NCBI GenBank assembly: GCA_040882355.1
Contig: JBBEBM010000031.1
Coordinates: 1 to 32,094 of the forward strand
Length of the DNA stretch: 32,094 nt
DNA from: Dehalococcoidia bacterium
GTDB lineage: Bacteria > Chloroflexota > Dehalococcoidia > DSTF01 > RBG-16-68-14
Reading direction: 5' to 3'
Shown here: positions 6,863-19,423 of the stretch, in pieces
Numbering within the stretch: the stretch's first letter is position 1
Layout: each line of letters opens with the position of its first letter
Program-made: the position numbers and the translations under genes
Notes under the pieces: generated by a model
Told to the model about the DNA's origin: nothing
What the model saw: the letters and a program-made list of their open reading frames with translations, nothing else
Databases searched by the model: none

Positions 6863-15179
<8,317 letters not shown>

Positions 15180-15270: not shown

Positions 15271-15945
15271 ATGGGCACACCGCTGAAGCCGCCGCCAACC
15301 AACGGCCACCGAGCCTCCGTGGTCGAAGCTCCCACACCCAGTGCAACCCCCAACGAGGTCGAATCAGCACGGAGGCCTGGCTTCTTGCGGCTGGAGTACG
15401 CCCTCCTCGCCGGTGTCGGGCTGCTCATCACTGCCTTCGCCTTCATCTTCTTCTTCTTCGATGTCAGCCTCGCTCAGCTCAACACGTACGGCTACGTCGG
15501 CCTCTTCCTGATCAGCCTGATCAGCGCCGCTTCGATCGTCTTGCCGATGCCCGGGGCCGCGGCGATCGCCGGCGCCGGCGCCCTCCTCGATCCGGTCCTG
15601 GGCATTCCGGTCCCGATCATGGTCGGCCTCGTCGCCGGGCTGGCTGAAGCGCTCGGCGAGTTCACGGGCTACGCGGCGGGCTACGGCGGCAGCGCCCTGT
15701 TCCGGGACCGGCCCATCTATCCGCGCGTCAAGGGCTGGATGGAGCGACGCGGCACCCTCACCATGTTCCTGCTCTCGTGCATACCGAACCCGCTCGTCGA
15801 CGTCGCGGGCGTGGCGGCGGGCGCCGTCCAAATGCGCATCTGGCGTTTCTTCGTCGGCGTATTCTCAGGCAAAGTGGTCAAGAACATCTACCTCTCCTCC
15901 GGCGGCCTGATCGGCGCCGAGATCATTCAACGACTCTTTGGGTAG
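15271..15945 (+). CDS. DedA/VTT (SNARE-associated) family membrane protein
   Basis: YGYVGLFLISLIS...LPMPG, ALGEFTGYAAG, IPNPLVDVAGVAAG, GKVVK; extended -10 TGgTATCAT at 15244-15252. Confidence 0.85.
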   Translation: MGTPLKPPPTNGHRASVVEAPTPSATPNEVESARRPGFLRLEYALLAGVGLLITAFAFIFFFFDVSLAQLNTYGYVGLFLISLISAASIVLPMPGAAAIAGAGALLDPVLGIPVPIMVGLVAGLAEALGEFTGYAAGYGGSALFRDRPIYPRVKGWMERRGTLTMFLLSCIPNPLVDVAGVAAGAVQMRIWRFFVGVFSGKVVKNIYLSSGGLIGAEIIQRLFG

Positions 15946-15950
15946 GGGCC

Positions 15951-16646
15951 GTGTCACGCGACCTCCCATCGAGCGTAGGAGCAATCGTCGTCGCCGCCGG
16001 GCGGAGCCGGCGCATGGACGGCATCGACAAGCTCTGGACGTCTCTTGCACGCCCGGGCGAACCAAAGCCGTTGCTCGCATACCCACTGGCGGCCTTCGAA
16101 GCCTGCCCATCCGTGAGCCGGGTTGTCCTCGTCGTCAGCGAGGAGACCGTCGAGCGAGCACGGTCGCTCGTGTTAGACGAAGCACTCGACAAGGTGCGCG
16201 CCGTCGTGCCCGGCGGCGAACGCCGCCAGGACTCGGTCCGCGCCGGCCTCGACGCCCTGGGGGGCTGCGATTGGGTCGCCATCCACGACGGAGCGCGCCC
16301 GCTGGTTACCGTGGAGCTGATCGAGCAGGGGCTGTTGGAGGCAAGGGAGACGGGCGCATCCTGCCCCGTCCTGCCCGTGGCCGATACCGTCAAGGAGATC
16401 GATGAAGCGGGATTCGCCGTGCACACGCTCCAGCGCGCGCGCCTGCGTCTCGCGCAGACGCCCCAAGTCTTCCGCTACGACCTGCTGCTCGAGGCGCACC
16501 GACAGGCCGGCGACGAAGCGACGGACGACGCCGCCATGGTCGAGGCGTTGGGCGTTCGCGTGCGCCTCTTTCCGGGCACGCGCCGCAACGTCAAGGTGAC
16601 CACACCCGAAGACCTGGCGCTCGTCCACGCGCTGCTCACGCCATGA
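15951..16646 (+). CDS. ispD: 2-C-methyl-D-erythritol 4-phosphate cytidylyltransferase
   Basis: [11 protein letters not shown]...[42 protein letters not shown] 15951 lies just after the dedA stop. Confidence 0.95.
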
Positions 16647-17116
16647 GGAGCGGCATCGGCTACGATATTCACCCCCTGACGCCGGGGCGGCCGCTCGTCT
16701 TGGGTGGAGTGCGCATCCCTCACGAGCAGGGCCTCGCCGGCCACAGCGATGCCGACGCGCTCAGCCACGCCGTCATCGACGCGCTGCTTGGCGCGGCCGC
16801 GCTCGGCGACATCGGCACCCACTTCCCGTCCGGCGACCGGCAGTACCGCGACGCGAACAGCCTCGACCTGCTGCGCCGCGCGGTCGAGCTCGTGACGAAC
16901 GCGGGCTACCGCGTCGTCAACGTCGACGCCACGGTCATCGCCGAAGCCCCGAAGCTCGCCCCGCACATCGGCGCGATGCGGGCGGCGCTGGCGGGAGCGC
17001 TCGGCGTCGAGACGAGCGCCGTGAGCGTGAAGGCGACGAGTTCCGACGGACTGGGCGCGATCGGCCGCGGTGAAGGGATTGCAGCGCTGGCCACCGCCCT
17101 GCTAGACTCTACGTAA
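16643..17116 (+). CDS. ispF: 2-C-methyl-D-erythritol 2,4-cyclodiphosphate synthase
   Basis: [37 protein letters not shown] overlap with ispD. Confidence 0.97.
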
Positions 17117-17140
17117 TCCGCCGCAGGCGGGTCTACCGCT

Positions 17141-17218
17141 ATGAGCATGGCTCGAACACGCAAACCGCCTCTACGCAGGCCGCTCCTTCGGCCCAGGATT
17201 CGCTGCGTTTGTCTCTAG
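17141..17218 (+). CDS. putative Cys-containing leader peptide (MSMARTRKPPLRRPLLRPRIRCVCL) of cysE-cysS
   Basis: Manual translation; two Cys codons (TGC 17204, TGT 17210) near the stop; the coding strand is complementary to the cysE SD region. ATG 17147 is an alternative start. Confidence 0.6.
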   Translation: MSMARTRKPPLRRPLLRPRIRCVCL

Positions 17219-17277
17219 GGGCGTCCGCCTAAGGCGAACGCCCCCAGCCGCGCGAACCTGAGCGGAAGGAGGTCCTG
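17176..17277 (+). promoter_or_regulatory. long SD-sequestering hairpin (candidate translational attenuator) upstream of cysE
   Basis: 17183-17197 pairs with 17257-17271 (13/15), 17199-17203 with 17252-17256, 17205-17211 with 17245-17251, and an apical stem spans 17218-17244. Confidence 0.7.
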
Positions 17278-17282
17278 AGAGC

Positions 17283-18050
17283 GTGTCGCTCCTGAACAAC
17301 ATCGCAAGAGACATTCAAGCCGCCCGCGAACGCGATCCGGCGGCCGCCAGCAACCTGGAAGTCGTCCTCGCGTACCCGGGCTTCCACGCCCGCCAGTTGC
17401 ACCGGCTCGCCCACGCGCTGCACACCAGCGGCGTGCCGGTGCTGCCGCGCGTCATCTCGCACGCGGGGCGCTTCATCACGGGCATCGAGATCCACCCGGG
17501 CGCGAAGATCGGCCAGGGCCTGTTCATCGACCACGGCATGGGCATCGTCATCGGCGAGACGGCCGAGATTGGCGATAACTGCCACCTCTACCAGGGCGTG
17601 ACCCTCGGCGGCACGAGCACGAAGAAGGAGAAGCGCCACCCGACGCTGAAGGACAACGTGCAAGTCGGCGCCGGCGCGAAGCTGATCGGCGCCATCACCG
17701 TGGGCGAGAACGCTTCGATCGGGGCCGGCTCGGTGGTCGTCACGAACGTCCCGCCCAACGCGACGGTCGTCGGTGTGCCGGGGCACATCGTCGCCTACCG
17801 CGACCCCGGCTCGGACACGGTGCTCCATCTACCCGACCCGGAGTGGGACCGCATCACCGCCCTGGAGCAGCAGTTGCAGGAGCTCGGCGAGCGCTTTCGC
17901 TCGCTGGAGGAGCGGCTGGGGGCCACGACGCTGAACAACGCGTCCGGGCCGTTCGGAAGCGCGGCACCGCCGGCTGACGTCGGGGGCATCACCCCGGAAC
18001 CCCGCCCCGAAGCTCCGGAGCGGGAGTATCCCTCCATGGGGAGCCGCTGA
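17283..18050 (+). CDS. cysE: serine O-acetyltransferase
   Basis: [65 protein letters not shown]. Confidence 0.97.
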
Positions 18051-18052
18051 AC

Positions 18053-19423
18053 ATGCCGCTGAAACTGCGCAACACCCTCACCGGCCAGGCCGAGGAGTTC
18101 AAGCCCCAGGGCGACGTCGTGTCGATGTACGTCTGCGGCGTCACGCCTTACGACATGAACCACGTCGGCCACGCGATGAGCTACATCTCCTTCGATGTGC
18201 TCCGGCGCTACCTCGAGTTCAGCGGCTATCAGGTGCGCCACGTCCAGAACTTCACGGACATCGACGACCGGATCATCACCCGCGCGAACAAGGCCGGTGT
18301 GACGATCAACGAGTTCACGGAAGGCATGATCGAGCGCTACCACGAGGACATGCGCGCCCTCAACATCCTGCCGCCGCACGTCTACCCTCGCGCCACTGAA
18401 GAGATCCCCGCCATGATCGAGATGATCACCGGGCTCATCGACCGCGGGTTCGCCTACGTCTCCGAGGGCGACGTCTACTACCGCGTCCAGGGCAAGGACG
18501 ACTACGGCAAGCTCTCGCACCGCACGCTCGATTCGATGATCGCGGGCGCGCGCGTCGAGGTCGACGAGCTGAAGGAGCACCCGATGGACTTCGCGCTCTG
18601 GAAGGCGGCGAAGCCCGACGAGCCATCCTGGGAGAGCCCGTGGGGCCCCGGCCGCCCGGGCTGGCACATCGAGTGCTCAGCGATGTCGCTGCGCTACCTG
18701 GGCGAGCAGATCGACATCCATGGTGGCGGCGAGGACCTGATCTTCCCCCACCACGAGAACGAGATCGCGCAGACCGAGGCCTACACCGGCAAGGCGCCGT
18801 TCGTCCGTTACTGGGTACACAACGCCTGGGTGAAGGCGGGCGAAGAGAAGATGAGCAAGTCGCTCGGCAACTTCGTTACCATCGCCGACGCGCTCGCCCG
18901 CTGGCCCGCGGACGCCATCCGCATGTGGGTGCTCACCTCCCACTACCGGACGCCGCTCTCGTACACGGAGGAAGCGCTGCAGGCGGCGAAGCGCGGCGGC
19001 GAGCGCCTCCGGATCGCGGCGCGCGCGCCATCAGATGGCGCCGCCGCGGGCGGAGAGATCGACGCGGCGCCCTACCGCGACAGCTTCATCGAAGCGATGG
19101 ACGACGACCTGAATACGTCAAAGGCGCTCGCCGCGCTCTTCGACCTCGCGCACGAGATCAGCAGAGCCCGCGACGAGGGCCGTCCGGTCGCCGGCGCGCA
19201 GGCAGCACTCCTCGAGCTGGCCGACGTGCTCGGCCTCACCCTCACCGAGGCGGAGACGGACATGGGCGCCGCGCCATTCATCGAACTGCTCATCGCCCTC
19301 CGCGGCGAGCTGCGCGAGGCGAAGCAGTTCGCCCTCGCCGACCGCGTCCGCGACGGACTTACCGAGCTTGACATCGCCCTGGAAGACACGCCGCAGGGCA
19401 CGGTGTGGCGCCGCCAAGACTGA
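18053..19423 (+). CDS. cysS: cysteine--tRNA ligase
   Basis: MYVCGVTPY...HVGH, NFTDIDD, GRPGWHIECS, HGGGEDLIFPHHENE, KMSKSLGN. Confidence 0.98.
   Translation: MPLKLRNTLTGQAEEFKPQGDVVSMYVCGVTPYDMNHVGHAMSYISFDVLRRYLEFSGYQVRHVQNFTDIDDRIITRANKAGVTINEFTEGMIERYHEDMRALNILPPHVYPRATEEIPAMIEMITGLIDRGFAYVSEGDVYYRVQGKDDYGKLSHRTLDSMIAGARVEVDELKEHPMDFALWKAAKPDEPSWESPWGPGRPGWHIECSAMSLRYLGEQIDIHGGGEDLIFPHHENEIAQTEAYTGKAPFVRYWVHNAWVKAGEEKMSKSLGNFVTIADALARWPADAIRMWVLTSHYRTPLSYTEEALQAAKRGGERLRIAARAPSDGAAAGGEIDAAPYRDSFIEAMDDDLNTSKALAALFDLAHEISRARDEGRPVAGAQAALLELADVLGLTLTEAETDMGAAPFIELLIALRGELREAKQFALADRVRDGLTELDIALEDTPQGTVWRRQD

Follow-up and report, generated by a model that had tools for sequence, protein, structure and literature searches.

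In Bacillota, the cysE-cysS operon carries a Cys-specific T-box leader that binds uncharged tRNA directly and needs no translation. Leaders with translated Cys codons have been described in other groups. The mycobacterial poly-Cys leaderless short open reading frames (sORFs) Ms5788A and Rv2334A have a Cys tract at their 3′ end and form an exceptionally stable structure including the downstream Shine-Dalgarno (SD) sequence; stalled ribosomes were proposed to block this structure and so to unmask the SD, attenuation of this kind was shown by mutation and proteomics, and Rv2334A precedes cysK1-cysE (10.1101/834739, Canestrari et al.). In Rhodobacterales, the upstream ORF (uORF) uORFC-8-2 places two Cys codons within a stem before cysS and was proposed to be a Cys-tRNA sensor (Brewer et al. 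2021, PMC8632094). Actinobacterial Cys leader peptides lacking terminators were predicted by Seliverstov et al. 2005 (PMC1262725). Here we analyze a stretch of 32,094 nucleotides (nt) from a Dehalococcoidia bacterium of the phylum Chloroflexota (assembly GCA_040882355.1, contig JBBEBM010000031.1, positions 1 to 32,094), referred to as the window, in which a short ORF with Cys codons and a long mRNA hairpin lie between ispF and cysE-cysS. We consider it probable that this element is a ribosome-mediated, cysteine-sensing translational attenuator of cysE-cysS. An earlier note, made from the sequence of the window, had proposed such an attenuator and had stated that no description of one in Chloroflexota was known to its author. 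The latter statement held in full-text literature searches, which did not cover supplements and returned no paper describing a Cys leader in this phylum; in the accessible part of PMC4833913, Chloroflexi are mentioned only as an under-sampled group.

The gap between ispF and cysE comprises 166 nt and contains an unannotated ORF on the forward strand, at the place where the earlier note had seen it; all coordinates given there were correct on re-reading of the sequence. According to the ORF list and its translation, this leader ORF (17141-17218) consists of 25 codons, starts with ATG and encodes MSMARTRKPPLRRPLLRPRIRCVCL. Its sole Cys codons, UGC (17204-17206) and UGU (17210-17212), are part of the sequence UGC-GUU-UGU (Cys22, Val23, Cys24; 17204-17212), and the peptide ends with RCVCL in front of the UAG stop codon (17216-17218). 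The G of this stop codon is the first base of a terminal hairpin.

A cysE orthologue was found in all 41 genomes of a sample of the order, including the own genome. One contig of this sample ends 24 nt before cysE and was not assessable. In 39 of the remaining 40 genomes, UGC-NNN-UGU is located 55-118 nt 5′ of the cysE start, and the exception (L035) reads CGA-UGU-UGU, again two Cys codons in the same frame. Order genomes and named Chloroflexota loci together provided 56 distinct leaders after removal of duplicates (L043, L045-L048, L053, L054), cut-off contigs (L004/L044) and rows without the motif (L049, L055, L056, L061, L070); L057, which contains a lone UGC-UGG-UGU without hairpin, was set aside. 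An alignment of 55 rows, that is the 56 leaders minus L035, displayed UGC and UGU as invariant (55/55), with a variable codon for V, I, A, G, L, D, C, S or T in between. The conserved core in the order consists of UGC-NNN-UGU, 5 nt and a GC hairpin. The leader peptides, 11 to about 50 residues in length, have only the Cys codons in common. Extra Cys codons are frequent just 5′ of the motif (CCVCL, CCACP), and some relatives carry CC-x-C or CCC. The leader ORF stops one codon past the second Cys codon (Cys2) in 27 of 56 leaders, there with UAG, whose G opens the hairpin; the stop codon lies six codons past Cys2, inside the hairpin loop, in 16 leaders and elsewhere in 13.

The upstream regions carry a frame signature. 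For this comparison 76 leaders, including later finds, were grouped at less than 60% identity over positions -100 to -25 into 45 clusters. ATG triplets in the upstream 100 nt were distributed over frames 0/1/2 as 39/6/7, frame 0 being the Cys frame (binomial p 9.6e-10), and stop triplets in the upstream 60 nt as 0/15/37. Counting all 76 leaders gave 71/14/8 for ATG and 1/27/64 for stops. Although kin are not independent of each other, their N-terminal parts have diverged beyond alignment, and the signature is therefore a strong one. The earlier note had staked its proposal on relatives conserving the short ORF together with its reading frame and the Cys codons near its end, and this was thereby upheld (39/40 genomes; 0/52 in-frame stops). 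Moreover, -10-like TANNNT hexamers were found 5-8 nt before 18 of 114 in-frame ATG or GTG codons in the leaders of relatives, compared with 1 of 98 out-of-frame codons. In family f3, a GTG start follows TAGAGT at a distance of 7-8 nt (for instance TAGAGT-N7-GUG), and Tepidiformaceae show TAAGCT-N8-AUG; such spacing suggests that part of the family has leaderless leader ORFs. A GGAGG-like SD precedes the leader ATG in many members of the window's family. Indels were compared pairwise as well: gaps of length 3 made up 9 of 20 gaps inside leader ORFs and 18 of 153 in the 70 nt downstream. This comparison is partly circular, in-frame starts having been chosen, and was given little weight; the single 3-nt gap inside the ORF in the high-identity pairs L020/L029 and L029/L051 is likewise weak support. 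We regard the element as real and conserved; very probably it is a regulatory leader of cysE-cysS that carries Cys codons and is translated.

The frame signature also bears on the reading that the gap encodes an untranslated structured RNA, be it riboswitch-like, protein-binding or a 3′ stabilizer or terminator of ispDF, in which the open frame would merely result from high G+C content. The stable GC hairpin right after ispF would fit, and open frames are common in a genome of 66% G+C. Frame-specific ATG excess and stop avoidance are unexpected for a non-coding RNA, however, and so is the preference of the -10-like hexamers for in-frame starts. Besides, neither the length nor the sequence of the hairpin loops is constant, as it would be in an aptamer, and no Rfam family reached its gathering score. 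Eleven motif-bearing loci have no ispF in the upstream 700 nt; in this comparison the element follows cysE-cysS and not ispF. We therefore regard an untranslated RNA as very improbable.

RNAfold calculations for 17117-17300 resulted in one long hairpin (17183-17271), and all pairings described in the earlier note were reproduced. The 5′ strand of the sequestering stem (17183-17197) is composed of the anti-SD core CUCCUUC (17183-17189) and of GGCCCAGG (17190-17197). The anti-SD core pairs with GAAGGAG (17265-17271), which is most of the cysE SD sequence GAAGGAGG (17265-17272), and GGCCCAGG pairs with CCUGAGC (17257-17263). Further inward, UUCGC pairs with GCGAA, and the Cys-codon segment GCGUUUG (17205-17211) pairs with 17245-17251, 14 nt before the SD in the same stem. 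The 3′ strand (17245-17272) thus ends in the SD sequence, as indicated by the fold and by covariation in the family. A terminal GC hairpin (GGGGCGU-C-CGCC-UAA-GGCG-A-ACGCCCC, 17218-17244), located 5 nt after Cys2, caps the structure. The minimum free energy (MFE) of -83.6 kcal/mol compares with -71.1 ± 4.4 kcal/mol in 200 shuffled sequences (z = -2.85; 1 of 200 shuffles as low). As a single sequence, the hairpin is only moderately above chance; comparative data make it more than a chance feature.

The 5 bases after UGU are free of gaps in the 55-row alignment, and G occupies the three columns that follow in 48, 54 and 54 rows, respectively. In the cap hairpin 81.8% of the cells are paired, compared with at most 57.4% when partners were slid, and 34 cells are changed on both sides compared with 15.7 ± 3.1 in shuffles, none of 500 reaching 34. 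The structure used for the long stem was imposed by hand from L002 and hence leans towards this sequence; a plain MAFFT alignment of 16 leaders, in which the 3′ arm was misaligned, gave no more than stem fragments in RNAalifold. In 12 sequences of the window's family, 85.6% of the stem cells are paired (at most 54.2% with slid partners) and 9 of 30 pairs are changed on both sides (4.2 ± 1.4 in shuffles; 0/500). Addition of five independent metagenomic sequences gave 84.8% (at most 51.7% slid), with 9 of 24 pairs changed on both sides (4.2-4.7 ± 1.4 in shuffles over the two sets) and 12 double-change cells compared with 5.6 ± 1.8 (0/500). The anti-SD/SD helix and the adjoining helix were paired to 89.1% in both sets, 6 of 13 pairs being double-changed. 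Relatives of the window thus keep the stem with some compensatory changes, modest in extent, which is the covariation of anti-SD and SD that the earlier note had expected. The partner of the SD differs between groups. In MFE folds it is situated at -17 to -25 relative to the first Cys codon (Cys1) in the window's family and Tepidiformaceae, and at -36 to -44 in genus g4; direct pairing of the SD with the Cys codons is confined to family f2 and L107. Almost every MFE fold has the Cys codons in paired regions.

These features suggest the following course of regulation. The leader transcript would start at a promoter in the 3′ end of ispF or read through from ispDF. In the free RNA, the half containing the anti-SD and the Cys codons would pair with the strand ending in the SD, and this stem of about 30 base pairs (bp) with its GC cap would block initiation at cysE. 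When Cys-tRNA(Cys) is plentiful, ribosomes would cross UGC-GUU-UGU, melt the cap, terminate at the UAG codon (17216-17218) and leave, upon which the stem would re-form. When Cys-tRNA(Cys) is scarce, a ribosome would wait with Cys1 in the A site and cover or disrupt most of the 5′ strand. The SD strand would be left partnerless, 30S subunits could start cysE, and cysS would follow 2 nt later. As the signal would be charged tRNA(Cys), the product of CysS, one sensor could serve both cysteine supply by cysE and charging by cysS.

A candidate promoter, TTGCAG (17079-17084) and TAGACT (17103-17108) on the forward strand separated by an 18-nt spacer, is located inside the 3′ end of ispF (17079-17108). 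The letters are present as described in the earlier note, but they match the consensus at 7 of 12 positions and were missed by the sigma-70 scan. The end of the candidate -10 box is 32 nt away from the leader ATG of the window. A TAGACT, TAGAGT, TACAGT or TAAAGT hexamer at the ispF end is found in families with differing IspF C-termini, a persistence that is no more than suggestive. The earlier note had also pointed to a local hairpin, GGCCG-CUCCUU-CGGCC (17178-17193), which could capture the anti-SD. It is present as written in the window, but about 3 bp (CCG/CGG) are all that relatives keep, and we rejected it as a conserved switch element; its 3′ half would fall inside a ribosome stalled at the Cys codons.

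Release of the SD by a stalled ribosome was modelled with a 27-nt footprint for unpaired probabilities and a 31-nt footprint for free energies. The cost of opening the SD and start codon of the window was 18.0 kcal/mol in the free RNA, 10.0 kcal/mol with Cys1 and 12.6 kcal/mol with Cys2 in the A site, and 5.4 kcal/mol with the ribosome over the anti-SD. The footprint calculation suggested in the earlier note thus shows the opening cost falling, but not a freed SD. Helix a alone contributes -9.1 kcal/mol, compared with -12.3 kcal/mol for a generic 16S anti-SD on the cysE SD. As the model permits pairs spanning the ribosome and ignores queued ribosomes, release may be understated. Folding supports release in part; it is the weakest link of the proposed attenuator, and Cys1 would be the effective stall site in the window's family according to these models.

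Several observations speak against a cysteine-sensing translational attenuator. The mean unpaired probability of the SD is 0.24 in the free RNA, 0.30 with Cys1 and 0.25 with Cys2 in the A site; it amounts to 0.34-0.40 with the A site 3-30 nt further upstream. Of 56 leaders, 22 show a decrease in opening cost of 3 kcal/mol or more with the ribosome at Cys1 and 13 with it at Cys2, compared with 32 when it is placed 15 nt further upstream, over the anti-SD. In the constrained fold of the window, the SD, once freed, finds a new partner in CCUCU further upstream (about 17167-17171). Covariation in the long stem is real but modest and drawn from related sequences. In family f5 (L022, L024, L027, L028, L034, L050) a conserved local hairpin, GAGGAC-N3-4-GUCCUC, abuts the AUG within the last 25 nt before cysE. 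It masks the SD independently of the leader ORF and is left untouched by a ribosome at the Cys codons in the model. The leader ATG of the window is preceded only by a weak SD (GGCGGG), and in three leaders of genus g10 a canonical start codon is missing where one would be expected. Finally, the last Cys codon, which is UGU in every leader aligned and in all variants inspected, indicates that the nucleotides themselves are under some constraint, too.

Two of these regions contain further structures. A small hairpin, CCGCC-GCA-GGCGG (17118-17130), follows the ispF stop codon directly and lies 5′ of the leader ATG; its 3′ arm overlaps GGCGGG, the only SD-like stretch of the window's leader. L002 carries CCGCC-UCA-GGCGG at the matching place. 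The g10 leaders L036, L040 and L041 (family f2) contain a conserved near-palindrome, AUUCUGA(A/U)(U/A)CAGA, between the -10 box and the Cys codons, just 3′ of a strong extended -10 sequence (TGnTATATT or TATAGT). This near-palindrome could serve as an operator for a protein; alternatively, translation of the ORF may begin at AUU, AUC or AUA.

The invariant UGU and the modelled SD opening lead to another explanation, according to which translation of the short ORF does no more than open the SD-masking stem constitutively, by translational coupling and without cysteine sensing; the Cys codons would be kept for the pairing of their nucleotides in the stem. UGC and UGU are conserved as nucleotides throughout the alignment although UGU is the minor codon: in the high-GC3 frames (high G+C at third codon positions) of the window the ratio of UGC to UGU is 40:8 (UGU 8/48 Cys codons), so that codon usage does not account for the terminal UGU, which may reflect pairing or slower wobble decoding. 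The pairing of the Cys codons in nearly all MFE folds and a modelled SD opening that is largest during passage of the ribosome over the anti-SD rather than at the Cys codons agree with coupling, too. Yet the partners of the Cys codons differ among families while the codons persist. Adjacent codons are often Cys as well, L035 keeps two Cys by a shift, and wider relatives carry UGU-NNN-UGU or four alternating Cys codons. Furthermore, the element is linked to precisely those two genes that encode the makers of Cys-tRNA. Coupling alone is thus an improbable explanation.

The main rival accepts that the leader ORF senses Cys-tRNA and places the output in transcription, either by Rho or by the GC hairpin acting as a terminator without U-tract. 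Early release of the ribosome would expose untranslated RNA, a stalled ribosome would prevent the stop, and masking of the SD would be secondary. Such an output would agree with the finding that the Cys codons and the hairpin 5 nt downstream are more conserved than the manner of SD masking, and with the local, leader-independent SD hairpin modelled for family f5. There are also precedents: Rho-dependent control was proposed for the terminator-less actinobacterial Cys leaders (PMC1262725), and a Cys uORF is combined with an intrinsic terminator before cysS in Rhodobacterales (PMC8632094). In the window, however, the cap is followed by CAGCCGCG and not by a U-tract, and a consensus scan of 16600-17400 detected neither a terminator nor a sigma-70 promoter. 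In addition, the window's family nests the hairpin in a stem that ends exactly in the SD and shows compensatory changes. We consider a transcriptional output unlikely and translation initiation the most likely output.

An Rfam scan of 16500-17800 yielded 12 matches at E ≤ 10, all far below the gathering scores and none of them a T-box. The absence of a U-tract and of a T-box motif, both stated in the earlier note, was thus borne out. The best sub-threshold matches were mir-7558 (25.2 bits, gathering score 80) and weev_FSE (24 bits, gathering score 40). Both fall on the cap (17215-17247, on both strands, weev_FSE with 24 and 22.3 bits), and we read them as chance matches to a GC hairpin. As for the scheme of Cys-tRNA-dependent stalling as a whole, the conserved ORF, Cys codons and stem and the link to cysE-cysS came out as the earlier note had proposed, whereas modelled release was partial and promoter and alternative hairpin turned out weaker.

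A more tentative idea, which we think rather doubtful, is that the conserved unit is a portable, structure-assisted stall sensor made up of UGU, exactly 5 nt and a strong GC hairpin, and connected to several output platforms. When UGU, the wobble-read minor codon, occupies the A site, a distance of about 11 nt would separate the first base of the P site from the base of the hairpin, which would thus sit at the mRNA entrance. Such spacing resembles that of structures which stimulate frameshifting. Placed there, the hairpin would detain the ribosome at the Cys codons or slow it down, and the response would become sharper. Outputs would be the distal anti-SD, direct pairing of Cys codons with the SD, the local SD hairpin, and cysS without cysE. 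A stall sensor with varied outputs would parallel riboswitch aptamers joined to expression platforms.

The distribution of the element was examined with a covariance model of the core, which comprises 69 positions with 7 pairs, beginning 9 nt ahead of Cys1 and including the hairpin. In the own genome (3.3 Mb), the site in the window scored 50.5 bits and the runner-up 22.3 bits (E = 0.15); the two next-best matches have neither a Cys-x-Cys ORF nor a cys gene. Matches at E ≤ 0.01 were obtained in 23 of 151 genomes of a class sample, and 15 of the 17 matches outside the order are directly 5′ of cysE-cysS, the other two being unrelated. A phylum sample of 151 genomes gave matches in nine, the own genome included. 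The other eight comprise four before cysE-cysS, one before cysS and three unrelated ones. The match before cysS (L158, G295:C4) is a leader encoding MMISALRCACP between ispF and cysS with no cysE, and this arrangement suggests a sensor controlling the synthetase alone. Among metagenomic cysE loci, 13 of 80 matched at E ≤ 0.1, each just 5′ of cysE, and 50 cysE loci labelled with other phyla or no phylum gave no match at E ≤ 1.

Of the 151 genomes in the class sample, 100 contain cysE (E ≤ 1e-50). For 40 of the cysE-bearing genomes without model match the region upstream of the gene was inspected, one of these regions being on a contig that ends after 22 nt. Searching for Cys-x-Cys, 4-6 nt and GGG provided 13 more candidates among these 40, one of them doubtful. 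Variants found by eye have a single Cys codon (L256, L268), UGU-AUC-UGU (L249) or four alternating Cys codons (RCLCACAC...; L250, G141:C1:191335-191605), the last with a TATAAT box 8 nt before the ATG. At some other class loci there is no gap at all before cysE. As these leaders lie outside the model matches, the model undercounts the element and the number of Cys codons is flexible, ranging from one to four per leader in the wider class sample.

The genes surrounding the element were assigned by Pfam. ispD (15777-16646) and ispF (16643-17116) are followed on the forward strand by cysE, encoding serine acetyltransferase with a GTG start (17283-18050; Hexapep 1.8e-12, SATase_N 2.1e-06), and by cysS, encoding cysteinyl-tRNA synthetase (18053-19423; tRNA-synt_1e 1.1e-127, DALR_2). 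As cysS begins 2 nt past the cysE stop codon, both genes are probably co-translated or co-transcribed. Their adjacency is retained at the loci examined in the order, class and phylum samples. ispF is directly 5′ of cysE-cysS in 28 of 30 fetched order loci, and the contigs of the other two stop short of ispF. Named relatives of the cysE locus are Chloroflexota metagenome-assembled genomes, most of which bear the label Dehalococcoidia; Tepidiformaceae belong to the more distant relatives. A search of sequencing runs listed no RNA run containing this DNA, whereas most of the stretch is present in four sediment DNA runs from a single study, one of which may be its source. A 1495-codon open frame (10692-15179, forward strand) is located 5′ of the ispD region of the window.

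We also considered a regulon of Cys leaders in the own genome and discarded this idea, as the model detects no further copy there and three cysK-like genes are without a Cys leader. The best cysK (G000:C17:24628-25509, locus L165; 444.7 bits, above the cut-off) sits right after an ORF whose translation resembles an Rrf2/CymR-type regulator, and the two further cysK-like genes lack a Cys leader as well. Since cysK follows an Rrf2-type gene and has no Cys leader, cysK and cysE-cysS seem to be differently controlled.

Chloroflexota are a large, mostly uncultured phylum with, to our knowledge, almost no characterized gene regulation. If our interpretation is true, the phylum would gain a defined, sequence-recognizable cis-regulatory element. 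It would also be the third independent coupling of cysE-cysS to the charging of tRNA(Cys), next to the T-box of Bacillota and the Cys-codon leader ORFs of Actinomycetota and alpha-proteobacteria. The fixed spacing between UGU, 5 nt and hairpin together with the varied masking of the SD would offer a compact system for entrance-structure effects in stall sensing. Genome annotation of these lineages could add the unannotated leader ORF by use of the covariance model built here.

The leader shares with the Cys T-box of Bacillota the cysE-cysS operon and the charging of tRNA(Cys) as signal; it differs from it in that Rfam detected no T-box between 16500 and 17800 at E ≤ 10. As in trpL, hisL and the actinobacterial Cys leaders, cognate codons are near the stop codon and the position of the ribosome would decide on the fold (PMC1262725). 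Unlike classical transcription attenuators, the element contains no terminator/antiterminator pair. The uORFC-8-2 leaders also have two Cys codons in the stem of a uORF at a cysS operon. According to their description (PMC8632094), these codons are adjacent and mostly UGC, and an intrinsic terminator with a U run acts on transcription; here, C-x-C is found, the last codon is always UGU, a U-tract is missing and the SD is part of the stem.

A close resemblance exists to the mycobacterial sORFs (10.1101/834739), which likewise have Cys codons by the stop codon, an SD hidden in a stable structure, no terminator, and genes of cysteine metabolism downstream. In family f2 and L107 the direct pairing of Cys codons with the SD even corresponds to Ms5788A, and the -10-like box 5-8 nt before the start in several relatives recalls the leaderless sORFs. 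Homology to these sORFs at the sequence level cannot be claimed. In contrast to them, the window has two Cys codons as C-x-C and no consecutive run, a start codon 32 nt past the candidate -10 box, and an SD that pairs with an anti-SD 15-21 nt 5′ of the Cys codons. The Chloroflexota leaders are set further apart by a GC hairpin that is conserved at a constant 5 nt past the last Cys codon, by the cysE-cysS operon and by their affiliation to another phylum. The distinctive traits of the element are C-x-C, the invariant terminal UGU, the hairpin at a fixed 5 nt and the use of several output platforms.

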